Assembly: GCA_026770705.1 (NCBI GenBank)
Contig: JANJGN010000546.1
Coordinates: 310,001 to 374,000 of the forward strand
DNA length: 64,000 nucleotides
Direction: 5' to 3'
Origin: Isurus oxyrinchus
Lineage: Eukaryota
Below the pieces are notes generated by a model that was given only the letters and a program-made list of their open reading frames with translations, searched no databases and was not told where the DNA came from. A program made the translations under genes and the position numbers. This document shows, piece by piece, positions 137 to 53,274 of this stretch; the stretch's first letter is position 1, and each line of letters begins with the position of its first letter.

Positions 137-348
137 CTTAATACTGACCCTCCAACAGTGCAGCACTCCCTCAGTACTGATCCTCCAACATTGCAGCACT
201 CCCTGATTAATGTCCCTCTGACAGTGCAGCAATCCCTCAGTACTGACCCTCAAACAGTGGAGATCTCCCTCAGTACTGACCTTACAATAGTGAAACACTC
301 GCTCAGTAATGACCATCCAACAGTGTAGCACTTGCTCAGTACTGACAC
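137..348. repeat. 33-bp tandem repeat array (CAGTGCAGCACTCCCTCAGTACTGACCCTCCRA)
   Basis: Direct periodicity; gives the 11-aa repeat HSLSTDPPTVQ in ORF 71..328. Confidence 0.9.
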
Positions 349-575
349 TGGGGAGTTTCAGTCTACTGTGTGGGGCAGAGGTCCCCTGAATCAGGTCTTG
401 AACCCCACAACGTTCTGACCCCCTGAATTTGGCTGTGAAACCCACTGACCCAAAGGAGAAACTCCTGGTCAATGACTGTCCACCTGTGAGCAGAAATATC
501 AACACAGGGACAGGACACAAAGGGTTAACAGTTTACCAGCATCTCAAAACAGGAGCTGCTCTGTCACTTTGATCC

Positions 576-588
576 AACTTCCTCATTT
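576..588 (-). promoter_or_regulatory. Ets/PU.1-type site (AAATGAGGAAGTT) upstream of gene A first exon
   Basis: aacttcctcattt at 576-588; the same site is at 20034-20046 upstream of gene B and matches the PU.1 GAGGAAGT core. Confidence 0.45.
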
Positions 589-631
589 TGTCTCACAGTG
601 ACACATCCACCCTTTCTAATTAAACACACAG

Positions 632-716
632 AGGGAGCAGCACAGGAAGAGGTCATTCAGCCCAAACAGAGCGTGTGAGCAGTTTCTCCCCAGGCGAGCA
701 GTCGGACAGGTCCTGG
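632..716 (+). other. Putative non-coding first exon of gene A (85-nt shared exon); donor +1 mutated
   Basis: Near-identical to 20090-20174, 44432-44516 and 48529-48613, which end TGG|GTAAGT; this copy reads TGG|TTAAGT. Confidence 0.5.
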
Positions 717-1166
717 TTAAGTAACGGAACGATTGGAATTCACTTCCACCACCAACACTGTCCTTTGTTGATGTTGTGACTTTATAAAGACAGATTCCAA
801 TGATTGATGCCTTTGAAAGATTTCTACTGATTATTAAGATCAGGGTGTGAGGCTCAGGTCTGTTGTACAGAACATCTTTCTAGCTCAAAGGATGAGGGAA
901 GAGCAGGGACATGAGCTTTGGGACATCCTGAGGTGGTGAAAGGTGCTATAGAAATGCAAGTCCTTCACTGATTTATTTTTTTACAGCTTTTTAACTCTCT
1001 GCAGAGCACCTATCATCCCACAGAGAACCAAATTAGTCTGTGAAGACATTGTCTAAAAGCAGTTCTGATCTCTTGAGAGCTGTCGGACAAGAGGTGAGGT
1101 CTCATTAACTCCTTTCTCTTTCACAGTTTAAGAGTCAGAAGCTAAAGGCATATCTGGGAGTGGACA

Positions 1167-1206
1167 ATGGTTGGGAAATCTTACTTCCTCCTGTCACTTC
1201 TCCAAG
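1167..1206 (+). CDS. Gene A leader (signal peptide) exon MVGKSYFLLSLLQ
   Basis: ACAATGG Kozak context, hydrophobic stretch, CAAG|GTAATA phase-1 donor; paralogues at 20625 and 49064; joins the V exon to give LLQ-VGLSQ. Confidence 0.8.
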
Positions 1207-2189
1207 GTAATAACATCGTCAGCTTGGACAGACTTATGGCTAATAGTCTTTGTAAAAGAACATTCTTATGGAGCTCTGATAGGGAACTGATTCAGCAGTG
1301 AGTCAGTGTACAAACTCACACCACGTCCCATTCACCCATCACCCCTGTGCTCACTGATATACACTGACTCCCTGTCTGACAGCAGAACTGCAGGACAGCA
1401 GAGACCTCAAAGGGTTTCAGGGCTGGAGGAGGTGACAGTGATAGGGATTAGAGATGGAGAATGGAGGGATAAGGAATCAATGAAGAGATTTTGAAAATTG
1501 AGGCATTGCTGGACTGGGAGCCAGTGTAGGTCAGTGAGTGACAGGGGAGCGATCGGCTGAATAGAGAAGCAGGGATAAAAACTGGGGGATGAAGTCTATC
1601 CTGATGCAAGCACTCCGATATCAATGCCCTGAAATTTTTCTCTCTTGCTGATTTTCATCAGAATTTCCCATGAAGACAACACAGAAGCTCTTAGATTAGA
1701 CAGGCAGTTCAGCGTCACACTTCCTGTCCATTCTCACCATGTTAGAAAATTCGATAAGATAGCAAGATAACTGATAGAGAGAAGGGAGGCAAAGCTGTCT
1801 GTATGTAAAACTGTCAAATATTCTGAGTTATCATGATTGTTTCTGATCTGCTGCAGAGTTTATATTTCATTGAAACTTATCACTTTGCAGCTCAGAGAGA
1901 GACCATTGACTCACTGCCTGAAAGGGCGGTGGAAGCAGATTCAACAGGAACTTTCAGAAGGGGAACTGGATAAATACTTGAAGGGGACATTTTGCAGGGC
2001 TGTGGGGGAGAGAGCAGAGGTGAGAGTGGGACTAATTGGACAGATCTTTCAAAGGCCCAGCACAGGCTCGATGGGCCAAATGGCTTCCTTCAGTTCCGGA
2101 TCATTCCACAATCCGATAAATTAAATCTCTTATCAGTAACACTTCAGGCTCCCGCTGCAGGAATGGATCTTTGAGAAGGATAGGGAACA

Positions 2190-5100
2190 AGCGGTTTCTC
2201 ATATCATGTTCATATTTATTGACAATTACATAAGTGCATGGAACTGTTGAATATTTGACTCTCTAAAGTGTGGATTTAACCTTCTGGTCCACCCAGATCT
2301 TGTGCTGGTTACCTTGTCTGGAGGTGTCTTTAACTGCTCACAGTGGTCTGTGGGATTGTCACCCTTGGATGTTGTTCCTGATTTCATGTGGGATCTTCTC
2401 CTCGATGGAATAGGAGCGGGAATGGATCTGATTTATCCTCGGTTCCGCCTCACCGCTGTGCCCTTGTGTGTTTGACTCCATAGGCCCTTGGTTCTGAACA
2501 AATCCTTGTCACCTCGGCTGGTGGTCATGAACCTTCTGTGGGATCCTGGATGTGAACTTGTCCCAACTCTAAACTTGGCAACTCTGCACCTCCATTTTTA
2601 TCATGAACATTCCTTATCTTCTCTTGTAGTTTTAAAAGCTGCCCTCTGGTTTCTGAGAGAGTAGAATGGGTAAGAGTAGCGAAATTGGTCACTACTGGCA
2701 CACCAAACATGATCTCTGTCAGTGATGGAATAAGGTGAGGTGATGGTGTAGTGGTATTGTTGCTGGATGAGTAATTCAGAGACCCAGGGTAATGTCCTGA
2801 GGATATGGGTTCAAATCCGGCCATAATAGATGATGGAATTTGAATTTAATAAAAATATGAAATTCAAAGTCTAGTGATGACCACAAAACCATTGTTGGAA
2901 ATCCCACCTGGTTCACCAGTGCCCTGTAGGGAACAAAATTGTCTGGCCGACATGTGACTCCAGACTCCACGTCAATGTGGTTGACTCTTACATTAGGGAT
3001 GGGTAATAAATCCTGGCCTCGCCAGTGACTCCCACATCCCATGAATGAATTTAACAAAGTTGCAGTTGTAGGTGTCGATCTCAGATGTAACATTGCAATG
3101 TGTGGATCTTGCTTGGCCTGTCTACATTTGAGAATTAGGGATTTCACTGTGTGAATCATTCATTCAGCTAGGCTGTTAGATCAGGGGTAATGAGGAGAAG
3201 AAGTAGTGTGATTGATATTCCAGATTATCTGTAATCATGTCCCTAGGTTCACCAAATAATCTGAAAATCGTGCTTAGAGTGTGTGCACCAGTTGTGCTCG
3301 GTGTGTTGTGCTATTTTTGAATAACGGGATATCTGGTAAAGCTGTCGACGATGACGATGAAGTCAGTGACATGGACATGAAAGGATTCAGATGTGATTTT
3401 GGACTAAGAATAGGCAGGAATTTCCTGTGGAATCAGTGGTTCTTTGTGTTGACTTGGCTCATCCTCTTGACAAGCCTCGAACTTCCCTACAACAACTTCA
3501 AGGTCATTGTTCATACCCGGCCAGGGACTGTATCTCTTGTGAGTCTCCTTGTCTGATCTGTGCCCATGTGTGAGGGATGAAGTTGTTGAAGAATATAGGA
3601 TCACAAATGTGCCGGTATGATGCCCTGCCTGCCATTAAAAAAGACTCCCTGGGAGATACCTCGCTTATCTCGATGAGGTCAAGTTGAATCAGGCCACCCT
3701 TTCAATGATATTTCCACAGTTCCTGCCGAATTTTTCACTGTTCCCTCTTGTAGCTGCTGGCATTTCTCTTGTGCTAAATGTACTGGATCAATTGACAGAC
3801 TTGCATTCTCCTGCAGGTGTAATGTTGCAGCTCCCTTGAAACTGACAATACTGTTGAAACTTTCTGCATATTTCAATGTTATGTCCATGAACTGAGTTGC
3901 TGGGGTAGTTTCTGAGTTTGACCCATGTGAGGTCTGACAGATTCCATGGATTGTCTCTAGGGTGAGGTCACCGCATGCCGGTAGACTTGCAATTGCTCAG
4001 CCTTTAGTCTCCACGATGTAGAACATCTGTGACACCCAGGAGGATTGATTGTACTTGCACCCCAGGACTATGGATTCTGCACATGGAGTTGGTGAAGTGT
4101 TGTACACAGCAGTAGGTTTTCCCATGGACTCCCATGTCCTTGGATACATGTCTTTGAAAATTTGCTGGGGTGGGCTGTGGGAGGGGAATGTTGGCACTTG
4201 CCCCTGTGTCAATCTTGGTCAATAAAGGGGAGGTTGCAACTTTCTCAGGGCAGAAAATTGGAATCTTGGCCAATAGTGCGGGTGATGTGACAGCATCTGT
4301 TCTCCGTGAGATTGATGGTGTAAAAGGTTTGAAATTGTTCAACAATTGTACAATACGTTGAGCACAAGTGCTGCACAAACTCTAGGCTGGGGTTTTCCGG
4401 CACAGTCATGATGGGCCCTGCCGTGGGAGATTGGACAAACATTGGCTTTCGGCCGGACCGGACAATCCTGGCAGTGGGTGGGGCCAGAAAATCCCACCCC
4501 TATGGGACATTTTCAGTTTATTTGATGTGCCCAGAGAGATCTTTAAAGACAACAATCCACAATTTATTGGCAAGCCACGTCAGGATATGTGTGAGAGGTG
4601 GAATATCGATCACCACTCCTCGTCTCACCGTGTACATCATCGCCATTTCCTGGTTTGTCAGTCACCACATGTATATGTTCCTGATGGGATAGTGGATGGT
4701 CATTCTTATTGCTTGAAGGTTCCCCGTTGTGTAGGGTCTGTTTGGATCAGCGCACGGCTCTTTGTAGCTGCATGAGCCTTTGCTCTAGTGCCCTGCCGCT
4801 GTCAATGGCCCTTTCTGCCACAAGCCTTGCAGGATTGGTGGAAAGCTGGGCATTTCCTTGGTGCCTGCAGAAGGCCACACCTTCCACACTTCTCACTAGG
4901 TTTGGATGTTCTAGTGAGTGTGTCAACAATTGATGTTGTACTGAGGACCTGTAATCTTCGTTGACCTGCGAGGATCACTTCGTATTTATGTCCATCCTTG
5001 AGTAGCTCTTCAATGCTATAGGCTTTGGTCGTATCTAGCAGTTCTCACCATGAGGGATCCGTCTGCTCCCCAGCTCTTTACTTGAGCTCTTTCCCATCAC

Positions 5101-7431: not shown

Positions 7432-7800
7432 TTGGACTGTCACAAGAGTGGAAAGGTGACACTCCACGAGAGGTGACGGCACAGAAAGGTTCGTGTGTAC
7501 AGATTCCATGTAATTACAATTACCCATCACATTTGTTAGAGAAAACACGTGTTGGAATCTGGAAAATGAGAAGGGACAAATGGCATACATCGTCTATAGC
7601 CTTTCACTCCAAGGATCACAGTCACGAGTTACCACGGTTCCACCATCGGACCCGGCTGTCTGGAGACCTGAAAGATGGTGACTGTTCCCTGATTATAAAC
7701 AACATCAGACGGGAAGATGCAGGACCTTATTTTTTCACGATAAAATTTGGCAATGGTCCGAGCCATAACTATTACCCTGTAACCCAGCTTCACGTTTCTG
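7432..7800 (+). CDS. Gene A Siglec-type V-set exon 1 (outer V, YFFT, essential Arg absent)
   Basis: ctctccccag acceptor, TCTG|gtaagt donor, 369 nt phase 1-1; Siglec motifs GSCVQIPC, GDCSLII, DAGPYFF; ACG (Thr) at 7737-7739. Confidence 0.92.
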
Positions 7801-13552: not shown

Positions 13553-13705
13553 GACATCTGAATATCACAATGAACAGAACAAGTTCCAACAATGAGCTGT
13601 GGTTGGTGATTCCTTACGTTACATCCGGGGACACTGGAGACTATCAGTGTGTGGCAGAGAATGAACATGGACCAGTGGATGGGCTCATAACCATCACTGT
13701 GGAAC
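13553..13705 (+). pseudogene. 5'-truncated C2b pseudo-exon (gene A)
   Basis: 3' half of C2b (MNRTSSNNELWL...ITITVE|gtgagt); the acceptor and 5' half are replaced by a ~180-bp insert. Confidence 0.8.
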
Positions 13706-14531
13706 GTGAGTGGACACAGACTTCAACATCTCTCTCAGATTGAATCATGACACAAACACACACAAATATACAGACCTAAATAGACACCTGCAGACACACA
13801 ATCCCACATGTATGAGCACACACAATGACACACTCACAAACTAACACACTCAAACACATCTCCCCCGTGGGTTACCTGACCTCCATCAGTGCTGCATCGG
13901 AGAGTTGACGTAGATTCTGGGATTTGTGTTCCCATTCATATTTCTGGAAGAACATGGAAATTGCAAATTCTATTAGACACTCAGATGCACAGAGATACTT
14001 ACAGATACTGATTGCCTCTCCAACTCTCTCTCTCCCTTGAAGAATCTTCTTCAAACCAAACCCTTTGACCAGGCATCTGTCCCAACTCCTCCTTCTGTGA
14101 ATCTGTGTGAAATATTGTTTGAGTATCTGAGAGTAAGAGAGAGGTGGAGAGGTTTAGGAAGGGAATTCCTGTTGGTGAAAAGCTTACATCATGTTCCCAC
14201 CTTTCCAGAGCCCATTTTGCACATGATGTCCAATATCCCTGTTCATCATGGGGATTGCCTATGTAAACATCACGCTGTAGTTACACTCTCCTACCAGTGG
14301 TGGCACGGTAGCACTTAACCCTTGCATCTCCCAGATTTTCAAGCAATTTCACTTCCCAATTTGCTACTACTCACCTCAACCACTCCCTGTGGGAGCGAGT
14401 TCCACATTCTCCCCTCTCTCTGGGTAAAGATTGGAACTGTTTATTAAGCGGGGGGTGTAAGTCCGTGGGGGAGTCCATCTCGATCCTGCCCGATTCGCAC
14501 ACGCGTCCGAGATGGATTTCCATCTTGCACT

Positions 14532-17373: not shown

Positions 17374-17513
17374 ACAGTGGAGGAGAGATTCTGCACGTGA
17401 TCCTGATCCTGGGAATACAAGCTGTGATATTCCTTGTGGCTGTGGTTATCACTATCGCTGGAGTCTGTGTCTGGGAGAGACAAACAGTGAAAGGAAGTCG
17501 ACAGACTGTTTGA
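17374..17513 (+). CDS. Gene A terminal TM + short tail exon (YSGGEILHVILILGIQAVIFLVAVVITIAGVCVWERQTVKGSRQTV*)
   Basis: ttctctag acceptor, phase-1 frame (not the frame shown in the ORF track); long hydrophobic span; TGA 17511-17513; Gln (CAA) at 17418-17420. Confidence 0.85.
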
Positions 17514-17634: not shown

Positions 17635-18245
17635 CAGCACAGTGGGAGCCCATTCAGCCCATTGAGTCCATGCTGCCTCTCTGTAAAGCAATCCAGTCAG
17701 TCCCATTTCCCCCTCTCTATCCCCGTATCTCTGCAAGTTTATTTCCCCTCAAGTGTCCATCCAATTTCCTTTTGAAATCGTTCATCGTCTCCACTTCCAC
17801 CATCCTCGTAGGCAGCGAGTTCCAGCTCATTACCACTCACTGTGTAAAAAAGTTCCTCCTCACATCCCCCCTCTGCCCAAAACCTTCAATCTGTGTCCCC
17901 CAGTCCTTGTACCATCAGCTAATGGCAACAGCTTCTCTTTGTCTGCCTTATCTAAACCCATCATCATCTCTTACACCTCGATCAGATCCCCCCTCAATCT
18001 CCTTTGCTCCAAGGAGAACAACCCCAGCTTCTCCAACCCAACCTTGTAGCTAAAATCCCTCATCCCTGGACCCATTCTGCTCAATCTCCTCCCCATCCTC
18101 TCAAGGACCCTCACTTCCTTCCCAAAGTGAGGAGACCAGAACTGGACACAATACTCTAGTTGTGACCTAACCAGAGCTTTATAAATGTTCAGCATAACCT
18201 CCCTGTGTTTGTTCTCAATCCCTCGATTTATGAAAAGCTTATTCT
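17635..18245 (-). mobile_element. CR1 LINE 3' fragment in gene A 3' region
   Basis: Minus ORF YKALVRSQLEYCVQFWSPH...LFSLEQRRLRGDLIEV. Confidence 0.88.
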
Positions 18246-20089: not shown

Positions 20090-20174
20090 AGGGGGCAGCA
20101 CAGGAAGAGGTCATTCAGCCCAAGCAGAGCGTGTGGGCAGTTCCTCCCCAGGCGAGCAGTCGGACAGGTACTGG
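20090..20174 (+). other. Putative non-coding first exon of gene B
   Basis: Shared 85-nt exon with TGG|GTAAGT donor, ~450 nt upstream of the leader ATG. Confidence 0.55.
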
Positions 20175-20624
20175 GTAAGTAACAGAACGATTGGAATTCA
20201 CTTCCACCACCAACACCGTCCTTTGTTGTTGTTGTGACTTTATAAAGACAGATTCCAATGATTGATGCCTTTGAAAGATTTCTACTGGTTATTGAGATCT
20301 GGGTGTGAGACTCAAGTCTGTTGTACAGAACATCTTTCTAGCTCAAGGGATGAGGGAAGTGCAGAGACATGAGCTTGGGGACGTCCTGAGCTGGTGAAAG
20401 GTGCTATGGAAATGCAAGTCCTTCCTTGCTTTTCTTTCTTAAAGCCTTGTAACTCTCTGCAGAGCACCTATCATCCCACAGAGAATCAAATTAGTCTGTC
20501 AAGACATTGTCCAAAAGCAGTTCTGATCTCTTGAGAGCTGTCGGACAAGAGGTGAGGTCTCATTAACTCCTTTCTCTTTCAGAGTTTGAGTGTCAGAAGC
20601 TTATGAAATATCTAGGAGTGGACA

Positions 20625-20664
20625 ATGATCGGGAAATCCTACTTCCTCCTGTCTCTTCTCCAAG
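20625..20664 (+). CDS. Gene B leader exon MIGKSYFLLSLLQ
   Basis: Paralogue of 1167-1206, phase-1 donor CAAG|GTAATA. Confidence 0.8.
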
Positions 20665-25056: not shown

Positions 25057-25434
25057 TTGGATTGTCACAAGAGTGGAAAGGTGACACTCCACGAGAGGTG
25101 ACAGCGCAGAAAGGTTCGTGTGTACAGATTCCATGTCATTACAGTTATCCATCAGATTTGGTAAAGAAACCACATGTCGGAATCTGGAAAATGAGAAGCT
25201 ACATACGGAACAAATGGTCTAAATGGTCTACAGCCTTTCACTCCAAGGATCACAGTCACGAGTTACCACGGTTCCGCCATCGGACCCGGCTGTCTGGAGA
25301 CCTGAAAGATGGCGACTGTTCCCTGGTTATAAACAACATCAGACGGGAAGATGCAGGACCTTATTTTTTCACGATAAAATTTGGCAATCGTCCGAGCCAT
25401 AACTATTACCCTGTAACCCAGCTTCAGGTTTCTG
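25057..25434 (+). CDS. Gene B V-set exon 1 (outer V, YFFT)
   Basis: 378 nt phase 1-1; ACG at 25371-25373; begins VGLSQEW. Confidence 0.92.
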
Positions 25435-28691: not shown

Positions 28692-29060
28692 CTGAACCCT
28701 CACAAGAGTGGAAAGGCGACACTCCACGAGAGGTGACAGCGCAGGAAGGTTCGTGTGTACAGATTCCATGTCATTACAGTTATCCATCGTGTCTGGAAAA
28801 CCAAACGCGAGGTGGAGTCTGGTTTAATAATGAGAAAGAGATTCCCTGGGCTCCCATTGCCTTTCACTCCAAGGATCACAGTCACGAGTTACCACGGTTC
28901 CACCATCGGACCCGGCTGTCTGGAGACCTGAAAGATGGCGACTGTTCCCTGATTATAAACAACATCAGACAGGAAGATGCAGGACCTTATTTTTTCAGGA
29001 TAGAATTTGACAATGGTCCGAGACATAACTATTACCCTGTAACCCAGCTTCACGTTTCTG
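28692..29060 (+). CDS. Gene B V-set exon 2 (inner V, YFFR, extra Cys)
   Basis: 369 nt phase 1-1; AGG 28997-28999; TGT 28790-28792. Confidence 0.9.
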
Positions 29061-32250: not shown

Positions 32251-32619
32251 ATAAACCCTCACAAGAGTGGAAAGGTGACAGTCCACGAGAGGTGACAGCG
32301 CAGGAAGGTTCGTGTGTACAGATTCCATGTCATTACAGTTATCCATCGTGTCTGGAAAACCAACCGCGAGGTGGAGTCTGGTTTAATAATGAGAAACAGA
32401 TTCCCTGGGCTCCCATTGCCTTTCACTCCAAGGATCACAGTCACGAGTTACCACGGTTCCACCATCGGACCCGGCTGTCTGGAGACCTGAAAGATGGCGA
32501 CTGTTCCCTGATTATAAACAACATCAGACGGGAAGATGAAGGACCTTATTTTTTCAGAATAGAATTTGACAATGGTCCGAGCCATAACTATTACCCTGTT
32601 ACCCAGCTTCACGTTTCTG
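32251..32619 (+). CDS. Gene B V-set exon 3 (inner V, YFFR, extra Cys)
   Basis: 369 nt phase 1-1; AGA 32556-32558; TGT 32349-32351. Confidence 0.9.
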
Positions 32620-33431: not shown

Positions 33432-33728
33432 ATTTCACAGATAAACCCATGATATTCCCTGCTGAAATTATTGCAGGAAAGCGTGTGGATGTAAGCTGCA
33501 CCTTCAACACAACGTGCAATGGAACAGCAGCACCTGTCTTAACCTGGGACACTCCCACTGACGTACCTGGATCAGTCTCAAACACTGTAACTCAACATGG
33601 TGTCACTCTGACCTATACTTCTGTTCTGACCCTGATCCCATCACTCAAACACCACGGACACACTCTCAGCTGCAGAGTGAGATATCCATCTGTTTCATCG
33701 GAGCGGACCCTTGTACTAACTGTACAAG
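33432..33728 (+). CDS. Gene B C2a exon
   Basis: 297 nt phase 1-1, almost identical to 12934-13230. Confidence 0.92.
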
Positions 33729-34099: not shown

Positions 34100-36150
34100 T
34101 ACATAGAAACTAGGAGCAGGATTAGGACATTCAGCCCTTCAAGCCTTCTCCGCCATTCAATATGATCAAGGCTGACCCTCTATCTCAAAGCCTTATTCCC
34201 GCTTTCTCTCCGTACCCTTTGATGCCCCTAATATCAAAATATTTATCAGTTTCTTTCTTGAATACACTCAGTGACCCGGCCTCCACAGCCTCTGTGATGG
34301 AGAATTCCACAGATTGACCACCCTCTGAGTGAAGAAATGTTTCCCTATCTCAGTCCAAAATGGCCTGCCCTGTATCCTGAGATTGTCGCCCTTGGTTTTA
34401 GACTCCCCAACCAAGGGATGCATCCTCCCTCCATCCAGTCTGTCTATCTCTGTTAGAATTTCTTACGTTTATTCAGGTCTCCTCTCATTCTTCTAAACTC
34501 TAGTGAATACAGACCCAGTCGTACCAATTCTCCTCATACGACAGTCCTGCCGCCCCTGGTATCAGCCTAGAGAACCTTCTCTGCGCTCTCTCGACAGCAA
34601 GTCTATCCTTTTTTAGGGAGGGAGAGCAAATCGGCACGTAGTATCCCATGTGCAGTCTCACCAAGACCTTGTATAACTGCAGTAAGACATCCCTACTCCT
34701 GAACACAAATCCTCTTGCAATGAAGGCCAACATACCATTTGCCTTCCGAATTACTTGCTGCACCTGCCTGTTTACTTTCATTGGCTAGTGCACAAGGACA
34801 CCCAGATCCCTTTGTACATCCACATTTCCCATTATATCACCATTTAAATAATACTCTGCCTTTCTGTTTTTCACACCAAAGCCTACAATGTCACATTCAT
34901 CCACATCATCTGCCATGTGTTTGCCCACACACACAACATGTCTAAATCGCCTTGAAGCCTCTTTGCATCCTCCTCACAGCTCACACCCTTACCCAGCGTT
35001 GTGTCATCAGAAAACCTGGAAATATTGCACTTGGCTCCCTCACCCAAGTCATTTATATATATCGTGAATAGTTAGGTCCCAAGCACGGATCCCTGTGGTA
35101 TACCACTAGTTAACGCCTGCCACTCAGATAAAGACTAATTTATTCTGACCCTCTGTTTCCTGTCTATCGACCAATTCTCAATCCATGCCAGTAAATTACC
35201 CGCAATCCCATGGGCTTTAATGTTGCGCACTAGCCTCACGTAGGACCTTATCAAAAGCCTTCTTGAAATCTAAATACACCACATCCACTGGTTATCCCTT
35301 ATCTATTCTACTCGTTACATCTTCAAAATCTCCAATAGATTAGTTAACCATGATTTTCCTTTCATTAACCCATGCTGATTTTGTCGAATCCCATTAATGC
35401 TTTCCAAGCGTTCCGTTAGCACACCTTATATAATAGGCTCTAGCGTTTTCCCCATGTTAGACTAACTGATCTGTAATTCCCAGTTTTTTTCTCTCCCTTC
35501 TATTTTAAATAGTGGGGTTACAATTGCCACCCTCCAATCTATAGGAACTGCTCCAGAGCCTATAGGATTTTGGAGGATGACCACCAGTGCTTCCAATATT
35601 TCCAGGGTCACTTCCGTTAGTCTCTGGGATGTAGATTTTCAGGCCCTGGGGACTGTTCAACCTTTAACCCATTAATCTCTCCAGATTCATTTTTTAAAAC
35701 TAATCCTGATTATCTTCAATTCGTCCCTCTCACTAGACACTTGGTTCCCTAACATTCCTGGGAAATTATTTGTGTCCTCTTTTGTGAAGACAGAACCAAA
35801 ATATATGTTCAGTTCTTCTGCCATTTCTTTGTTTCTCATTAGAATTTCCCCCATTTCTGACTGCAAGGAACCTACATCGGTCACTGCTAATCTTTCTCTC
35901 TTCACATATTTATAGAAGCTTTTACAGTCGGTTTTTACGTTCCCTGCAAGTTTACTCCCATGTTCCATTTTCCCCTTCTTGATCAATCTTTTTGTCCACT
36001 TTTGCTGAATTCTAAACTGCTCCCAATCCTCAGCATTGCTGCTTCCCCTGGCAATTTTATGTCTCCTCTCTGGATCTAATACTATCCCTAATTTCTTTTG
36101 TAAGCCCTGGTTGAGCACCATTTCCTGATTTATTTTTACGCCAGACAGAA
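34100..36150 (-). mobile_element. CR1 LINE ORF2 remnant (~2 kb)
   Basis: Minus ORFs KTDCKSFYKYVKR...EMAEELNIYFGSVFTKED and KANGMLAFIARG...LQLYKVLVR. Confidence 0.88.
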
Positions 36151-36284
36151 ATGGATAATTGTTGTAGCAAATGCTTCAGCCTTATCTTTTGCCCTGATGT
36201 GCTGGGCTCCCCCTTCATTGAGGATGGGGATATTTGTGGATTCCCCTCCTCCAGTGAGCTAATTGTCCGTTACCATTGGATACG

Positions 36285-37260
36285 AGCATTAGTGGACTGT
36301 GTTAGACCATTATCGAAAATGAAAGCCGGACTCCAGTATGGCCTCACTATGATGGATATGACAACTCGATTTCCAGAGACCATCCCTTTAGGAACAATTA
36401 CAGCTAAAGTAGTATTAGGGAAGTTAACCCAATTTTTTACCCATTATGGATTACCGCTGGAGATCCAGTCAGATCAAGGTTCCATCTCTATGTCTTAAAA
36501 TTTTCCGAACATAATGAGTAATTTGGGTATAAAACAGTTAAAGTCCACAGCATATCATCCATAGACACAGGGATCTTTAGAGAGGGACCAACAAACCCTC
36601 AAAACAATGATTGAAGCTATTGTCATGAACTCCCCATGACTGGGACAAAGGACTGGATTTTCTTGTATTTCCCACACGAGATTCACCAACTGAATCGGCA
36701 GGTTTTAGTCTTTTTGGAATAACTTATGGACACGAGATAAGAGGCTGTCTGAAATACATCAAAGAAAGATATTCCGGACAGAGGGATTTCAGATGATGTG
36801 TCCACGTTTCAGGAACGGCTCATGGGAGCCTCCAAAGTGGCACAAGAACATCTTATAGTTTCTCAAACAGAGATGAAGGAATGGGGCAGACAGGCAAGCT
36901 GTGACCCGAACATCACAACCAGGGGGATGACGTGTTAGTATCATTGCCTTGGCAGGGGGAGCCTCTGAAAGCGCGGTTCAGTGGTCCCCACAAGGTAATT
37001 AGGAGTGTTGGTCAAGTAAATTAATTGATAGACACCCCAGATTGTAGAATAAAGAATCGGCTGTGACACATCAATATGTTAAAACGATACCATCGTAGGG
37101 AGGGAGGTAAAAAGGAGCAGGTATTTCATTTCTAACCAGATTCTGCATAGATTACAGAAAGGTTAATGCAGCAATAAAACCAGATTCCTACCCAATCCCC
37201 TGTTTAGAAGATGGTATTGACGAGGTTGGCAGTGCCATGTTCCTTACTGAGATAAATTTG
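36285..37260 (+). mobile_element. Gypsy pol fragment with integrase upstream of RT (Gmr1-like order)
   Basis: Integrase DMTTRFPETIPL...YGLPLEIQSDQGS followed at ~37141 by RT N-terminus FCIDYRKVNAAIKPDSYPIP. Confidence 0.75.
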
Positions 37261-38091: not shown

Positions 38092-38373
38092 ATGGACCAC
38101 AGAATCTCTCAATTACTTCTCTTGATGTGATTAACGCTTCATCGGTCAATATAATTGAGGAGAATTCTGCAGTGATAATCTGCTCTGTCGAGAGCTTCCC
38201 AGCTTCTAATCTGACGTGGCGACATCTTAATGTCCCAATGAACAGAACAAGATCCAACAATGAGCTGTGGTTGGTGATTCCTCACGTTACATCCAGGGAC
38301 ACTGGAGACTATCAGTGTGTGGCAGAGAATGAACATGGAGCAGTGGAGGGGTTCATAACCATCACTGTGGAAT
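38092..38373 (+). CDS. Gene B C2b exon 1
   Basis: 282 nt phase 1-1, open, canonical AG/GT. Confidence 0.9.
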
Positions 38374-39505: not shown

Positions 39506-39787
39506 ATACACCACGGAATCTCTCAATTACTTCTCTTGATATGATTAACGCTTCATCGATCAATATAATTGAGGGGAATTCTGCAGTGATAAACTGCTCT
39601 GTCGAGAGCTTCCCAGCTTCTAACCTGATGTGGCGACATCTTAATGTCCCAATGAACAGAACAAGTTCCAACAATGAGCTGTGGTTGGTGATTCCTCACG
39701 TTACATCCAGGGACACTGGAGATTATCAGTGTGTGGCAGAGAATGAACAAGGGGCAGTGGAGGGGTTCATAACCATCACTGTGGAAC
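39506..39787 (+). CDS. Gene B C2b exon 2
   Basis: 282 nt phase 1-1, open. Confidence 0.9.
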
Positions 39788-40757: not shown

Positions 40758-41039
40758 ATGCACCACGGAATCTCTCAATTACTTCTCTTGATATGATTAA
40801 CACTTCATCGATCAATATAATTGAGGGGAATTCTGCAGTGATAATCTGCTCTGTCGAGAGCTTCCCAGCTTCTAACCTGACGTGGCGACATCTTAATGTC
40901 CCAATGAACAGAACCAGTTCCAACAATGAGCTGTGGTTGGTGATTCCTCACGTGACATCCAGGGACACTGGAGATTATCAGTGTGTGGCAGAGAATGAAC
41001 ATGGAGCAGTGGAGGGTTTCATAACCATCACTGTGGAAT
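40758..41039 (+). CDS. Gene B C2b exon 3
   Basis: 282 nt phase 1-1, open. Confidence 0.9.
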
Positions 41040-42036: not shown

Positions 42037-42318
42037 ATGCACCACGGAATCTCTCATTTACTTCTCTTGATTTGATTAACGCTTCATCGATCAATATAAT
42101 TGAGGAGAATTCTGCGGTGATAATCTGCTCTGTCGAGAGCTTCCCAGCTTCTAACCTGACGTGGCGACATCTTAATGTCCCAATGAACAGAACAAGTTCC
42201 AACAATGAGCTGTGGTTGGTGATTCCTCGCGTTACATCCAGGGACACTGGAGACTATCAGTGTGTGGCAGAGAATGAACATGGAGCAGTGCAGGGGTTCA
42301 CAACCATCACTGTGGAAT
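42037..42318 (+). CDS. Gene B C2b exon 4
   Basis: 282 nt phase 1-1, open. Confidence 0.9.
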
Positions 42319-43385: not shown

Positions 43386-43576
43386 GTTATATGTGAATCC
43401 TCCTTATAGAAACCTGCATGTACATGGATATTATCAATAAATATTACATAGATAAATGTTATTTGTATAGACCTTTCATGCATAGACAATATCACTTCAC
43501 AAGTTCAGAATTACTACATGTACATAGGGAACCATTCTCAAACTGTACCGGAGTCATTCATTGGCTGATTTTACAG

Positions 43577-43673
43577 GGCGAGATTCCAATGAATGGAAAG
43601 CAGGATTGCTTGGAGCTGGAATCTGTTTGAGTGTTGGACTGAGTGGATTCTTCATCTTCAAGTGTGTGAGAAA
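43577..43673 (+). CDS. Gene B transmembrane exon (W)RDSNEWKAGLLGAGICLSVGLSGFFIFKCVRK
   Basis: ttttacag acceptor, AAA|gtaagt donor, phase 1-2; uncharged Gly-rich 20-aa hydrophobic span followed by basic KCVRK. Not called in the ORF track. Confidence 0.82.
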
Positions 43674-44431
43674 GTAAGTGTGAAGGTTTAATTGGTTGTT
43701 TTTGAACATGTTTTCTCCAACCTTCTCTCCGTATAGAAAGAACTTGCATTTCTATAGCACCTTTCACAACCCAAAACCCTCCACAACCCCTGAAGAGCTT
43801 TGATGTTCACTCACTGTTTAACATCTCATCCAACACTCAATGTTTCACAACTCAGTCCTGTAACTGGCAGTGTTGACCTGGACCATAAAATACCTTGTGA
43901 CTTCCTGAGGATGTGAAAGGGGATATATAAATGAAGACATTTCTTTTGTTAGTGAATGCAATCTCTTTCCATTTTCACTGTTTAATACACTCTCTCTCTT
44001 ATCTCCACTAATTCTCTCCTTCTCATTCTCTCTCTCATTCACTCTCTCTCCAAACTCCACTAATTCTCTACTTCTCATTCTCTCTCTCATTCACTCTCTC
44101 TCCAAACTCCACTAATGCTCTCCTTCTCATTCTTTCTCTCGTCCTCTTACACAATGTTCAGTCTCACACATTTTAAACGAGCGCTGAGCAACATCTGCTC
44201 CTTCAGAAGATCCACCTCAACACCTGGAGTGAGCAGTGAATTGAAACTCGCTCAACGACTGCTCAGCTTTACACAGGAATCACGTCACAGAGTCAGGACA
44301 CAAAGGGTTAACAGTTTGCTTACAACACAACACTAAGGCCCTAAGTTTCAGTGAAAGGGTTTTCACAATTGTTCCCCAATTCCTGATTTGACTCACAGAG
44401 ACACATCAACCCTTTCTCATTAAATACACAG

Positions 44432-44516
44432 AGGGAGCAGCACAGGAAGAGGTCATTCAGCCCAAGCAGAGCGTGTGGGCAGTTCCTCCCCAGGCGAGCA
44501 GTCGGACAGGTCCTGG
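44432..44516 (+). CDS. Gene B candidate cytoplasmic exon 1 (K)GSSTGRGHSAQAERVGSSSPGEQSDRSW, a copy of the shared 85-nt exon
   Basis: acacag acceptor, TGG|gtaagt donor, phase 2-0, open; bridges the phase-2 TM exon and the phase-0 exon at 45028. A 22-nt exon at 44207-44228 would also bridge. Confidence 0.55.
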
Positions 44517-44689
44517 GTAAGTAACGGAACGATTGGAATTCACTTCCATGACCAACACCGTCCTTTGTTGATGTTGTGACTTTATAAAGACAGATACCAA
44601 TGATTGATGCCTTTGAAAGATTTCTACTGATTATTGAGATCTGGGTGTGAGGCTCAGGTCAGTTGTACGGAACATCTTTCTGGTTAAAT

Positions 44690-44958
44690 TGTGCAGACAG
44701 GTTACACAAAGTCTACGATTATATTCCCTCGGGTCTAGAAGATTAAGGAGTGATCTTACTGAGGGGTTCAAACTGATTAAACACTCGATAGGGTCGATAG
44801 AGAGAAGCTATTCCCTCGGGTGGGGGTGGGTGGTGGGGGTCGGGTGGAGTCCAGAACAAGGGGGCTGGAACTTCAGATTGGAGCCAGGCCGTTCAGGGGT
44901 GATGTCAGGAAGCACTTCTTCACACAAAGGGGAGTGGAAATCTGGAACTCTCTCCCCA
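44690..44958 (+). mobile_element. CR1 3' fragment
   Basis: LYSLGSRRLRSDLTE and FRGDVRKHFFTQRGVEIWNSLP. Confidence 0.8.
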
Positions 44959-45027
44959 ATAATCAAACCCAACATCGAATACACATCATGTTGATTGTCA
45001 CTCTGTCCATTTCCATCTCTATTACAG

Positions 45028-45132
45028 AAGAGAGGCGAGGGGAAAGCAGGAATCAAATCGAACCACCGTGTTGATGAATATCGAGGTCCTGTTTATGAAA
45101 ACTGTGAGCGTGGTTGGGCTTTGAGGAATCAG
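45028..45132 (+). CDS. Gene B cytoplasmic exon 2 KRGEGKAGIKSNHRVDEYRGPVYENCERGWALRNQ
   Basis: ctctattacag acceptor, CAG|gtgagt donor, 105 nt phase 0-0; tyrosine motif PVYENC. Confidence 0.72.
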
Positions 45133-45261
45133 GTGAGTCACACACCACAGGATCCCCAGCCTCTCAGCTGCTCCAGTAGCCTGGTTATTGATATGGCTGC
45201 TCCAGTCCTGTATCTGCAATGTTTTATACAGTCACTCCCAAACCCAACCAAACTCACACCC

Positions 45262-45642
45262 AACACCGTTCAGAATCAATAATCAAACCCCGTTCAGTAT
45301 CAATAATCAAACCCCGTTCAGTATCAATAATCAATCCCCATTCAGTTTCAATAATCAAACCCCGTTCAGAATCAATAATCAATCCCCATTCAGTTTCAAT
45401 AATCAAACGCCGTTCAGAATCAATAATCAATCCCCATTCAGTTTCAATAATCAAACGCCGTTCAGAATCAATAATCAAACCCCGTTCAGAATCAATAATC
45501 AAACCCCGTTCAGATTCAATAATCAAACTCCGTTCAGTATCAATAATCAAACCCCGTTCATTATCAATAATCAAACTCCGTTCATTATCAATAATCAAAC
45601 ACCGTTCAGTATCAATAATCAAACCCCCTTCAGTATCAATAA
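45262..45642. repeat. 24-bp minisatellite (AATCAAACCCCGTTCAGTATCAAT), ~16 copies
   Basis: Direct periodicity; 8-aa repeat ORFs in three frames. Confidence 0.95.
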
Positions 45643-45741
45643 TTAATGTATCTATTGTGGGTGGAATTTTCGATTTGGTTCAATAATTCTAAACACTGAT
45701 CACTCTGATTGTCACTCTGATCATTTCTGTTTCTATTACAG

Positions 45742-45858
45742 CAGAAAGATGAGAAGGATCTGGAAATGAAATCTAACCGCGGAGTCAATCCTGATACAGA
45801 TGATGATCTTTACGCAAACTGTGATTTTGCCAAGGATTCTGTTTATGGGAATTTATAA
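45742..45858 (+). CDS. Gene B terminal cytoplasmic exon QKDEKDLEMKSNRGVNPDTDDDLYANCDFAKDSVYGNL* (C-terminal ITIM)
   Basis: ttctattacag acceptor (NAGNAG), phase 0, TAA 45856-45858; SVYGNL fits (S/I/V/L)xYxx(L/V/I). Confidence 0.8.
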   Translation, partial: QKDEKDLEMKSNRGVNPDTDDDLYANCDFAKDSVYGNL

Positions 45859-47179: not shown

Positions 47180-48375
47180 GACAGGAGGACATTCAGCCTC
47201 TTGATCCTGTTACACAGGAACAGCAGGAGGCCATTCAGCCCCCTCGAGCCTGTTACACAGGAACAGGAGGAGGCACATTCAGCCCCCTCGAGCCTGTTAC
47301 ACAGGAACAGGAGGAGGCCCATTCAGCCCCCTCGAGCCTGTTACACAGGAACAGGAGGAGGCCCATTCAGCCCCCTCGAGCTTGTTACACAGGAACAGGT
47401 GGAGGTCCAATCAGCCCCCTCGAGCTTGTTACACAGGAACAGGAGGAGGCCCATTCAGCCCCCTCGAGCTTGTTACACAGGAACAGGAGGAGGCCCATTC
47501 AGCCCCCTCGAGCTTGTTACACAGCAAGAGGAGGAGGTCCATTCAGCTACTCAAGCCTATTACACAGGAACAGGATTAGGACAATACAGCCCCTCGAGCC
47601 TGTTACACAGGAACAGGAGGAGGCCTATTCAGCCACTCAAGCCTGTTACATGAGGACAGGAGAAAGCCCATCAGCCTCTTGAGCCTATTATACAGGAACA
47701 GGAAAAGGACATTCAGTCCCTCAACACCCTTCCACAGGAACAGGAGAGACTCTCAGCCTCTCGAGCCTGTTACCCAGGAACAGGAAGAGCACATTCAGTC
47801 TCTCAACCCACTTACACAGGAATAGGAAACCCATTCAGTCACTCGTGACTGTTACACAGGAACAGGAGGAGGCCCATTCAGGCCCCTCGAGCCTGTTACA
47901 CAGGAACAGGAGGAGGTCCATTCTGTCCCCTTGAGCCTGTTACACAGGTACAGGAGACCCATTCAGCCTCCACAAGCTTGTTACACAGGAACATTAGGGG
48001 CTCCATTCAGCCCCATCAAGCCTGTTACACAGGAACAGGAGGAGGCCATTCAGCCCCTCGAGCCTGTTACACAGGAACAGGAGGAGGCCCATTCAGCCAC
48101 TCAAGCCTGTTACACAGGAACAGGTGGAGGCCCATTCAGACCCTCTAACCTGTAACACAGGAACACAAGGAGATCCATTCAGCCCCTCGAGCCTGTTACA
48201 CAGGAACAGGAGGAGGCCTATTCGGACACTCGAGCCTGTTACACAAGGACAGGGGGAGGGCATTCAGCACCTGGAGCCTGTTACACAGGAACAGGAGGAG
48301 GTCCATTCAGCTACTCACACCTGTTACACAGGAACAGGAAGAGGCCCAGTCAACCCCTCGAGCTTGTTGCATGTG
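47180..48375. repeat. 44-bp minisatellite (ACACAGGAACAGGAGGAGGCCCATTCAGCCCCCTCGAGCCTGTT)
   Basis: Direct periodicity; the unit resembles the CR1 tail at ~11008-11045. Confidence 0.92.
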
Positions 48376-48528: not shown

Positions 48529-48613
48529 AGGGAGCAGCACAGGAAGAGGTCATTCAGCCCAAGCAGAGCGTGTGGGCAGTTCCTCCCCAGGCGAGCAGTC
48601 GGACAGGTCCTGG
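48529..48613 (+). other. Putative non-coding first exon of gene C
   Basis: Shared 85-nt exon with intact GTAAGT donor. Confidence 0.5.
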
Positions 48614-49041
48614 GTAAGTAACGGAACGACTGGAATTCACTTCCACCACCAACACCGTCCTTTGTTGATGTTGTGACTTTATAAAGACAGATTCCAATGA
48701 TTGATGCCTTTGAAAGATTTCTACTGATTATTGAGATCTGGGTGTGAGGCTCAAGTCTGTTGTACAGAACATCTTTCTAGCTCAAGGGATGAGGGAACTG
48801 CAGAGACATGAGCTTTGGGGTGTCCTGAGGTGGTGAAAGGTGCTATAGAAATGCAAATCCTTCATTATTTGTCTTACTTAAAGACTTGTAACTCTCTGCA
48901 GAACACCTATCATCCCACAGAGAATGAAATTAGTCTGTGAAGGCATTGTCTAAAAGCAGTTCTGATCTCTCGAGAGCTGTCGGACAAGAGGTGAGGTCTC
49001 ATTAACTCCTTTCTCTTTCACAGCTTGAGAGTGAGAAGTGG

Positions 49042-49102
49042 ATGGAATATCTGGGAGTAGACGATGGTCGGGAAATCTACTTCCTCCTGTCACTTCTCCA
49101 AG
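49042..49102 (+). pseudogene. Gene C leader exon with 1-nt deletion (frame restorable only from upstream ATG 49042)
   Basis: GGGAAATCTACTTC versus GGGAAATCTTACTTC (A) and GGGAAATCCTACTTC (B); ATG 49064 gives MVGKSTSS, ATG 49042 gives MEYLGVDDGREIYFLLSLLQ. Confidence 0.7.
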
Positions 49103-49792
49103 GTAATATCATCATCAGCTCGAACAGATTTATGTTTAACAGTCTTTGTAAAAGATCATTCTTATCTCTTTATCTCTGTAACCTCCTGCAACTCACCCAA
49201 ACAACTTCCCAGATCTCTGTGTTACTCCAATTCCGGCCTCTTGACCATCCCCCGATTCCCATCACTCCAATACTGGCGGCCGGGCCTTCAGCTGCCTGGG
49301 GCCTGAGCTCTGGAATTCACTCCCTAAACCTCGGGGATGGAGGAGATGAGAGGGTTTCATTTTACTGACAATCACCACGACAACATCACAGCTGCAGTCA
49401 GAATAGACAGAGAGTCCAGCCCTCACACTTCCTGCACAGTTTCACCATAGCAACCACAATAAAGAAGTAAAATAACTGAAAGTTAAACCGAAGCCAAACC
49501 AGTCGGTGTAGAGAGATGAGATGTTTACACAGTTTCCCTGTGTATCTTGTAGACACTGTGTTGGGTGGAAGACTGGCTTCACTAAACATGGTCCTGAGGA
49601 CCATGAGCCAATGTAGAATGAACTTGTCCACTCCTGTGACCAGGATTCTCTTCCATCCATTGTGAAACCTTGGGGAGTTCCTTGTGAGTCCTGTAGATGG
49701 TCCACACAGCAGCCACTGTGCCCCAGTGATGGAGGGAGTGGATATCAAGTCTAGTGGATTGACAAACCATCCAGAGTTAAATATTGACATTT

Positions 49793-49824
49793 CTATTACC
49801 CTGTAACCCGGCTTCATGTTTCTG
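49793..49824 (+). pseudogene. Gene C V-exon remnant (deletion junction)
   Basis: Pre-acceptor sequence TAAATATTGACATTTCT is fused directly to the last ~30 nt of a V exon (ATTACCCTGTAACCCGGCTTCATGTTTCTG|gtaagt). Confidence 0.88.
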
Positions 49825-50299
49825 GTAAGTGCTGCGTTATAATTACTCAACAATTCACATTCAACACTCAATGGGAAATAACACTAACTGTGACGTTTAC
49901 ATATTAACACAAAACACAGCTTAATATAACACACTGTCTGATTCTCAATAACCTGGTGATAGCTTCCAGTTCAGTCCTAAAGCAACCTCTAATACTCACT
50001 TTAATATCAATGATGAAAAGCATTAACTGTATTATCAGGTTATCCACTCCCATCAATCTCTCCTGTCCTGTTTAAAAGTCTCACGTATCGATAAAAGAAA
50101 GATGTGCATTTCTGCAGCGCAATTTACCACCTCAGGAGGATCCAAATCCCTTCACAGCCAATGACATTATTCCTGAATTGTAGTCACAGATGTTAAACAC
50201 AGCAGGCAGTTTGTGCACAGCAAGATCCAACAAACCACAAGGTGATAAATCACCCAGATCACTGAGGAAATGAGAGGCCAGTGAACTCAAACCTCTGGT

Positions 50300-51303: not shown

Positions 51304-51456
51304 GACATCTTAATGTCCCAATGAACAGAACAACTTCCAACAATGAGCTGTGGTTGGTGATTCCTCACATTACATCCAGGGACACTGGAGACTATCAGTG
51401 TGTGGCAGAGAATGAACATGGAGCAGTGGAGGGATTCATAACCATCACTGTGGAAC
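51304..51456 (+). pseudogene. 5'-truncated C2b pseudo-exon (gene C)
   Basis: Same truncation and upstream insert as 13553-13705. Confidence 0.8.
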
Positions 51457-53134
51457 GTGAGTGTACACAGACTTCAACATCTCTCTCAGATTCGAACACG
51501 ACACAAACAACCTCAAACATACACATCTAAGTAGACACATGCAGACACACATATATGACCACACAGAAAGACACACTCACACACAAACACACTAACACAC
51601 ACTCCCCTGTGGGCTACCTGACCTCCCTCAGTACTGCCCTGGAGAGTTGGCCTGAATTCTGGGATTTGTGTTCCCATTCATATTTATGCAAGAATATGGA
51701 AATTACAAAGTCTATTACAGACAGTCAGATGCATAGAGACACTCACAGATACTCTCTGCCTCTCCAACTCTCTCTCTCCCTTTAAGAAGCTTCCTGAAAG
51801 CTCACCCTTCGAACAATCACCGGTCCCAAATCCTCCTTATCTGATTTGTGTGATTTTCTTTGTGTATTTGAGAGTAAGAGAGAGGTGGAGAGGTTTAGGA
51901 GGAGAATTCCTGTTGGTGAAAAGCTTACATCATGTTCTCACCTTTCCAGTGCCCATATTTCACATGATGTCCAATGTCCTTGTTCATAATGGGAATTGCC
52001 TATGTAAACATCACGCTGTAGTTACAGTCTCCTACCAGTGGTGGCATTGTAGCACTTAATCCTTGTGTTTCCCAGCTTTTCAAGCAACTCCACTTCCCAG
52101 TTTGCTCCACAAGCTGTGAGTTCATTGGAATTCAATTATTTCTCAAACGGTAGATTTGATGTCATTTTATTGAAAACTTCCTCAGTGCCTCCCTGAAGGG
52201 TTTACACTCTCTGGGAAGCAGGAATAGGCTGGATGTTGGGGAGTTCATCTTTTCCCAGAGAGTAGGGATCCTCGGGAATGTGCTGTCAGTGGGTGTGGTG
52301 GTTGCTGATTCTCTGTCGCCTTCAAGAGGGATCTGGAGTCGTTACTGACTGGGGGAGAGATCATGGAAACGGAGAATGATACAGCACAGGAGGAGGCCAT
52401 TCAGCCCATTGAGACTGTGCCAGGTCTTTCAATGTGCTATCCAATCAGATCCACTAACCACCACTCCACTTTGCCCCCATCTTCCTCCTTTAAGTATTTA
52501 TCCAATTTCCCTTTTGAAAGTTCCTATTGAATCTGCTTCCACCGCCCTTTCAGGCAGCACCTTCCAGATCACAACAACTCGCTCTGTCAAAACAAATTCT
52601 CCTCATCTCCCCCTCCGGTTCGTCAATCTGTGTCCCTCTGGTTACCGAGCCTCCTGCCCCTTAAGTACATTGATACTGTTCACCTCAACCACTCCCTGTG
52701 GGAGCGAGTTCCACATTCTCCCCTCTCTCTGGGTAAAGATTGGAACTGTTTATTAAGCGGGGGGTGTAAGTCCTTGGGGGAGTCCATCTCGATCCTGCCC
52801 GATTCGCACACGCGTTCGAGATGGATTTCCACCCTGCACAAAACGTTTCCAGAATTTTCTACAGCACAATCCTGTACACAGCGATTGGGAGAAACATTGG
52901 ACAGGGAGTCCAACAGCACAATGATCCATTCTCACCAATGTTCCACGCTAAGGGGAAAGTTCCGATTGTCCACTCTTAGAGTGTTTACAATGAAAACATT
53001 CATTCCACATTGAATCCCAGTGGATGGGTCAATATTACAGCAAATGTTGCAGTGATATGAAGCTTGATTGTTCAGCCAGAGTAAGAGATTGAAAGCGGAG
53101 AGTCAGTGATGATTTCTTTCTGTGTGTTCTCTAG

Positions 53135-53274
53135 ACAGTGGAGGAGAGATTCTGCACGTGATCCTGATCCTGGGAATACGAGCTGTGATATTCCTTGTGG
53201 CTGTGGTTATCACTATCGCTGGAGTCTGTGTCTGGGAGAGACAAACAGTGAAAGGAAGTCGACAGACTGTTTGA
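53135..53274 (+). CDS. Gene C terminal TM + short tail exon with intramembrane Arg (ILILGIRAVIFLVAVV)
   Basis: Matches 17374-17513 except CGA (Arg) at 53179-53181. Confidence 0.75.

Follow-up and report, generated by a model that had tools for sequence, protein, structure and literature searches.

Three parts of the picture reported here are already known, namely frame-shifting tail exons, hybrid first-internal exons and gene conversion in Siglec pairs. For the first, exon 7 of CEACAM1 has a length that is not a multiple of three; its inclusion yields an ITIM-bearing long tail, and its skipping leads to an early stop and a short tail (accessible part of PMC2490704). For the second, the available text of PMC11797052 describes hybrid exons in which one exon sequence is used both at the 5' end and internally, with transcription starts centred on the 3' splice site. 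For the third, the paired receptors SIGLEC11 and SIGLEC16 have conversion tracts that include 5' untranslated sequence, as given in the accessible part of PMC5701461. A search of titles and abstract beginnings, with most subscription journals and supplements lying outside it, returned no publication on the structure of shark Siglec genes. At the same level of titles and abstract beginnings, no publication was found on an exon duplicated between a 5' UTR and a cytoplasmic tail, a point on which genome-paper supplements may bear.

The window analysed in this work, a stretch of 64,000 nucleotides from Isurus oxyrinchus (contig JANJGN010000546.1), holds three tandem immunoglobulin-superfamily genes (A, B and C), all on the + strand. 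Our reading of this locus, which we regard as probable, is that positions 44432-44516 form a spliced and skippable tail exon of gene B, that the near-identical copies lying 410 nt before the leader exons are likely non-coding 5' exons, and that gene conversion has likely kept these similar to the coding copy. If true, one exon sequence would be held under two constraints, as untranslated sequence ahead of genes and as coding sequence of a signalling tail, and the two constraints would have been coupled by sequence exchange throughout shark history. The main exons of the cluster are given below.

1127..1206, + strand: leader exon of gene A, with its ATG at 1167
17374..17513, + strand: transmembrane (TM) plus short tail exon of gene A, a different tail type, without the 85-nt exon
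20585..20664, + strand: leader exon of gene B, with its ATG at 20625
25057-25434, 28692-29060 and 32251-32619, + strand: V-set exons of gene B
33432-33728, 38092-38373, 39506-39787, 40758-41039 and 42037-42318, + strand: C-type exons of gene B
43577..43673, + strand: TM exon of gene B, phase 1-2
45028..45132, + strand: tyrosine-motif exon Y1 of gene B, with a single YENC motif
45742..45858, + strand: last coding exon Y2 of gene B, with a YANC motif, the ITIM-like SVYGNL and the stop
49024..49102, + strand: leader exon of gene C, with a 1-nt deletion and an in-frame ATG at 49042
53135..53274, + strand: TM plus short tail exon of gene C, with an intramembrane Arg

The translated exon chain of gene B, with the 85-nt exon in place, is an open reading frame of 994 aa whose sole stop stands at the end. 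The Y2 acceptor could be 45742 or 45745, and a loose contig end behind 45132 fits the start of Y2. The third V domain of gene B matches Pfam V-set (5.6e-12) and Ig_CD22 (9.2e-09), and the best matches of a gene B V domain among solved structures (PDB) are human Siglec-5, Siglec-8, CD33, Siglec-7 and MAG. Using the last C-type domain of gene B as the query, 101 proteins were retrieved, 100 of them shark or ray models that are Siglec/MAG/CD22-like or unnamed, and the closest (88-93% identical) come mostly from white shark and basking shark. The arginine conserved at the sialic-acid site of Siglecs is present in V2 (aligned to Siglec-5) and in V3. Across the cluster the layout is that of Siglecs, with C2-type domains, one TM and either an ITIM-like tail (gene B) or a charged TM (gene C). 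The intramembrane residue is Arg, of the activating type, in gene C and in three database homologues, and Gln in gene A. Judged from its predicted protein, gene B encodes a Siglec-like receptor.

By analogy, the cluster resembles the paired inhibitory/activating Siglec cluster of PMC13358205, as far as the accessible part of that paper describes it. Gene B shares with the CD33-related and MAG-like Siglecs presented there the V-set plus C2-type domains, the TM and the ITIM-like tail, its SVYGNL fitting the ITIM pattern given in that text, but differs in having three V-set exons, the first of which lacks the conserved arginine. Inhibitory-type and activating-type members stand side by side in the shark cluster as they do for SIGLEC11/SIGLEC16 in the available part of PMC5701461. 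Some further observations concern the individual genes. Thr occupies the Siglec arginine position in the most N-terminal V domain of gene A (7432-7800) and of gene B (25057-25434), and the later V domains keep Arg. Of the V exon of gene C only the 3' end is left (49559-49830), and genes A and C have in common a C-type exon without its 5' half (13555-13710 and 51306-51461); gene C may be a pseudogene or a V-less form. The leader exon of gene B contains an out-of-frame upstream ATG at 20603, and the equivalent ATG of gene C (49042) is put in frame with the signal peptide by the 1-nt deletion.

Between the TM and Y1 exons of gene B lies the 85-nt exon, which recurs before each of the three genes as part of a larger block.

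44432..44516, + strand: coding copy of the 85-nt exon, first cytoplasmic exon of gene B, phase 2-0, 28 codons
632..716, + strand: upstream copy before gene A, 82/85 identical, a GT 1 nt earlier replacing the lost usual donor
20090..20174, + strand: upstream copy before gene B, 83/85 identical, both splice sites intact
48529..48613, + strand: upstream copy before gene C, 85/85 identical, an AG 2 nt later replacing the lost usual acceptor
44362..44681, + strand: block common to the internal and the three upstream copies, extending to 44243 against copy A
44207..44228, + strand: 22-nt candidate exon, not supported

The first-pass annotation, made from the sequence alone, had noticed four exon copies within a shared block, and this observation stands, with identities to the internal copy of 82-85/85 over the four copies (blastn E 3e-36 to 1e-40). 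The identity of block 44362-44681 to the upstream copies of genes B and C is 92-93% (about 320 bp), and that of block 44243-44681 to copy A is 84% (442 bp). Relative to the exon, the block spans about -70 to +250 (to -190 for copy A), and the likeness of the upstream copies to the internal copy ends at +250. The block had been placed ~450 nt upstream of each leader exon; its recurrence there is correct, and the distance needs adjusting, as each of the upstream copies A, B and C ends 410 nt and starts about 495 nt before its leader exon. The donor of copy A was lost through a G>T change at 717. A second acceptor is found 33 nt upstream of the exon in all four copies, the internal one ending at 44398. 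Moreover, a purine-rich GAGGAAGT site on the minus strand at -55, which we take to be PU.1-like, is intact in copies A and B and degenerate in copy C and the internal copy, exactly as had been annotated.

The use of the internal copy in the gene B tail was examined in contigs of 4 of 22 candidate runs, probably of RNA, compared over positions 43450-45255, where X1 and X2 belong to organism A and one sample, and X5 and X6 to organism B and two studies. The intron parts of these contigs differ from the window at 4/161 and 4/209 sites (organism B) and at 12/294 sites (organism A), and with this difference of about 2-4% the contigs represent alleles, paralogues or relatives. The internal copy is bounded by AG and GT and links TM to Y1 in frame. 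Joint 43673>44432 (GT..AG) was found in X5 and X6, and joint 44516>45028 in X2 and X6, X1 having a loose end that fits the latter, so that both joints of the chain 43673>44432>45028 are present, each in 2/4 runs. The 28-aa exon peptide also follows the TM in database models of 12 shark species (Carcharodon, Cetorhinus, Scyliorhinus canicula, Mustelus, Heterodontus, two Chiloscyllium species, Hemiscyllium, Stegostoma, Rhincodon, Pristiophorus and Heptranchias), which presumably represent six orders. Whole or in part, the peptide occurs in 30/32 database proteins of the gene B tail type, a count that takes isoforms separately and in which 12 peptides themselves built the profile; the other two proteins are from skates. 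A profile search of 1.84 billion representative proteins gave 6 matches, from sharks or rays wherever they were named, 2 of which had also come from the C-type domain search, and the peptide matches no Pfam family. All six ray tails of the gene B type match the shark exon no better than shuffles do (z -0.8 to 0.95), and the same holds for eight control tails of another type.

These joints and shark proteins support the 85-nt exon 44432-44516 as the spliced, in-frame first cytoplasmic exon of gene B, and the annotated bridge, open in phase 2-0 and fitting its neighbours exactly, is borne out by the 994-aa frame with its single terminal stop. The annotation had named the 22-nt exon 44207-44228 as the competing link between TM and Y1, which is in frame on paper. 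No joint among those listed in the 4 runs uses it, its peptide is in none of the database proteins checked, and its donor carries G>C at 44229 in the contigs of organism A; used together with the 85-nt exon, it would break the frame. A tail-only transcript starting from the internal copy had likewise been proposed. In X1 and X2 the exon is joined to Y1 and no joint from TM to the exon is seen, and since contigs drop variants this is no evidence for such a transcript.

Exon skipping, which is absent from the earlier annotation, would make this exon a long/short tail switch. The joint 43673>45028, leading from TM directly to Y1, was found in X1 and X2, thus in one sample, with a depth of 1856 in X1 and of 132 in X2, the latter against 13.6 for the exon-to-Y1 joint of the same run; the skip joint could come from a paralogue without the exon instead of from gene B. 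Computed on the window sequence, skipping shifts the frame and gives a 32-aa basic tail without tyrosine motifs, the stop of which lies 8 nt before the last junction. Under the 50-nt rule of nonsense-mediated decay, the skipped mRNA would therefore escape decay. Inclusion would lead to a long tail with three tyrosine motifs, predicted to be inhibitory. The two forms are also represented at a catshark locus, where isoform X1 (P0155) includes the exon and has a long tail and isoform X2 (P0073) omits it and has a short, frameshifted tail, so that a frame-shifting cassette exon has been seen both included and skipped, in contig joints (the skip in one sample) and in the catshark pair. As in CEACAM1, so far as the accessible part of PMC2490704 goes, a frame-shifting exon is included for the ITIM-like tail and skipped for the short one, whereas the shark receptor is Siglec-like, its exon is the first after the TM, and copies of it also stand before genes, a second use of which that text gives no sign. 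If true, shark Siglec-like receptors would possess a CEACAM1-like long/short tail switch. Two observations relate to the donor of this exon. With the donor unused, reading could run on through 20 further codons before reaching a stop (44517-44579), a possible further tail without tyrosine motifs, and X5 and X6 contain upstream-type contigs with a changed donor, T>A at 44518.

As to how one sequence came to occupy both positions, we lean towards capture of a 5' exon into the tail rather than the reverse, a small share of the judgement staying undecided. A 5' exon with working splice sites would catch the TM donor of the upstream gene by read-through splicing, the caught exon would happen to be in frame with that donor, and a copy of the 300-400 bp block would have been fixed between the TM and tyrosine exons in a shark ancestor. 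Capture is favoured because genes of all three tail types have an upstream copy before them and the coding copy is found in one type only, because rays with the gene B tail type have no detectable exon, and because the read-through model P0031 has a TM donor spliced in frame to an upstream copy. If true, read-through splicing in a tandem array would offer a concrete route from 5' exon to coding sequence. Furthermore, the upstream copy of gene B is not the remnant of a gene A tail, since genes A and C are of a different tail type. The absence of the exon in rays may reflect sequence divergence, the ray TM segments differing as well.

The best surviving alternative, rather unlikely in our estimate, has the exon arise in the tail; an ancient duplication or deletion would have left a copy stranded before a neighbouring gene, and this copy would have spread along with the 5' unit and later become a UTR exon or acquired promoter elements. 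An acceptor, a polypyrimidine tract and a donor are kept in the block, copy A and the internal copy have intron sequence in common back to 44243, and the coding exon goes back as far as living sharks do, all of which would suit an origin in the tail, and human hybrid exons are, in the available text of PMC11797052, internal exons that gain promoter elements. The spread of the upstream copies over all three tail types, set against the single type of the coding copy, speaks against such an origin, as do the ray tails of the gene B type.

The source of the exon itself has one lead, confined to 27-40 nt, as its 5' third (44438-44464) resembles the antisense end of a common repeat. Nucleotides 7-33 of the exon match at 25/27 positions at 16621 and 52382 and at 22/27 positions at 17635 and 53396, compared with at most 19 in 30 shuffled windows. 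These four sites make up the distal end of minus-strand repeats located behind a decayed open reading frame, which we assume to be the end of a CR1-type LINE. Three repeat-derived pieces of open reading frame matched no Pfam family, and one of them gave only unnamed Atlas clusters. A similar 22-nt word is carried by a 44-bp satellite array at 47183-48368, just upstream of copy C.

For the upstream copies, database models, which may be purely computed predictions, connect the exon to the front of genes. White shark P0069 and five isoforms start inside an exon copy and run on into the leader; the basking shark P0027 cluster joins exon copy to leader in 15/15 listed of its 20 members, and P0071 and P0105 (basking shark) and P0031 do so too. 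In sevengill P0052 and white shark P0114 an exon copy runs into a V exon instead. In the contigs, depth steps up just before the acceptor, from 151 to 4836 in X1, from 6.5 to 117 in X2 and from 0 to 6.8 in X5, with no step in X6, and depth on the 85-nt exon exceeds that on the TM exon in 4/4 runs; contig depth is a poor measure of expression, so the step is a hint only. Contigs cannot show transcription starts, and over the compared stretch, which contains no leader exon, no exon-to-leader joint was observed. Shifts of 1-2 nt in the splice sites are tolerated in the upstream copies. A search in the other reading frame yielded just 3 basking shark proteins from 5 candidates and recovered neither P0052 nor P0114, and is therefore insensitive. 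Given the exon-to-leader models, the use of the second acceptor (below) and the depth step, the upstream copies are likely non-coding 5' UTR exons, first, internal or both, and they would start, or lie within, the 5' UTR of paralogues of every tail type.

Use of the upstream copies purely as spliced internal exons of farther-starting or read-through transcripts, with neither a first exon nor a promoter among them, is in our view unlikely. Most exon-to-leader models of the P0027 cluster, P0071, P0105 and P0031 are read-through from the gene upstream, and in the basking and white shark models concerned (P0114 among them) the copy is attached to tail or leader exons of the gene before it. The X5 contig begins its match at 44400, beside the second acceptor, after 86 other letters, the models P0139 and P0141 use that acceptor, and the retention of two splice acceptors in the block would be needless for a pure first exon. 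Against this reading stand the intact GAGGAAGT site 55 nt upstream, in A and B only, the beginning of P0069 and its isoforms within the exon and, as a weak hint, the sharp rise in depth before the acceptor in X1 and X2. The 5'-UTR role that had been annotated is supported indirectly, by the exon-to-leader models and the coverage hints, a first exon with a promoter being a candidate role only, with the amendment that some transcripts use the copies as spliced internal exons. An A allele at 44418 was considered as a marker of transcripts from upstream copies and was dropped, as all X2 depth there carries A, yet an internal-type contig spans the site.

The preferred reading of the upstream copies as likely 5' UTR exons invites comparison with hybrid exons (available text of PMC11797052). 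The shark depth step would fit starts near the 3' splice site, but one locus serves two uses in the hybrid exons, whereas the shark has separate genomic copies, one coding and the others likely not; neither 'duplicat' nor 'paralog' occurs in the text available from that paper. The two roles of the shark exon lie mainly on different copies, the upstream ones being internal in the read-through models. If true, the frequent fusion of database models across genes in such clusters would be explained.

If both positions are old, the copies would be expected to have drifted apart, and their divergence was measured as the smallest number of nucleotide differences over 78 nt that an upstream peptide, read in one frame, and a coding peptide, read in the following frame, allow between their sequences. 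Counted in this way, as peptide-derived lower bounds for a single sevengill model and with small margins (1 vs 3-6), the sevengill upstream copy differs from two sevengill coding copies by a minimum of 1 and 1, from six mackerel-shark-type coding copies (window included) by 3-6 and from nine other coding copies by 6-14, and shuffled controls give at least 18. Six mackerel-shark-type upstream copies differ by 0-4 from coding copies of their own lineage and by 4-6 from those of sevengill. Within the window, the internal copy differs from the upstream copies at 12-16/290 sites, and the upstream units differ from each other just beyond the block at 31-36/323-324 sites; Fisher tests of block vs flank (n=6) give p 0.001-0.07, with two values above 0.05 and one at 0.05, and selection may contribute to this contrast. 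Exon position 81 carries a variant that upstream copies (window B, basking shark P0027) share with coding copies (white shark P0028, the X1 loose end).

These patterns suggest that upstream and coding copies have likely been homogenised by gene conversion, a conclusion for which one deep comparison is the basis. The block had been annotated as homology for recombination that swaps or deletes tails; exchange of sequence between copies is what the within-lineage match and the block-to-flank contrast favour, and tail swapping gains no such support. In SIGLEC11/SIGLEC16, as described in the accessible part of PMC5701461, equivalent positions convert, whereas the exchange in the shark would link a 5' non-coding exon with a coding exon of the cytoplasmic tail. 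Recent repeated re-duplication, or slow evolution with regulatory constraint, in place of ongoing conversion is the least probable of the alternatives and unlikely, although repeated re-duplication would leave a similar signal, for, even with a cluster full of recent segmental duplications and several flank sites that group the three upstream copies against the internal one, the position 81 variant is found in upstream and coding copies alike, and a slow rate alone is insufficient for the within-lineage match given that sevengill and window coding peptides differ at 10/28 residues.

With homogenisation by conversion as the preferred account, a broader scheme can be sketched, which we offer tentatively and consider somewhat doubtful as a whole. 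Since the common ancestor of living sharks, one module, perhaps seeded by the antisense 3' end of a LINE, would have supplied the whole cluster with its myeloid promoter and 5' exon and, as a captured copy, provided the coding switch exon on which the making of an inhibitory tail depends. Conversion would tie the two together, such that changes in the UTR rewrite the tail and the reverse, and read-through into the next copy would still yield short-tailed or fused forms.

Several other features were observed around the exon and in gene B. A decayed fragment at 44690-44960, presumably LINE-like, starts right at the end of the shared block in the internal copy. An intron of gene B holds a piece of open reading frame (36115-36495) that weakly resembles an integrase (Pfam rve, E 0.0005, which misses the curated cut-off). 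Finally, a 24-bp tandem array of about 16 copies (45262-45643) fills the intron between Y1 and Y2.
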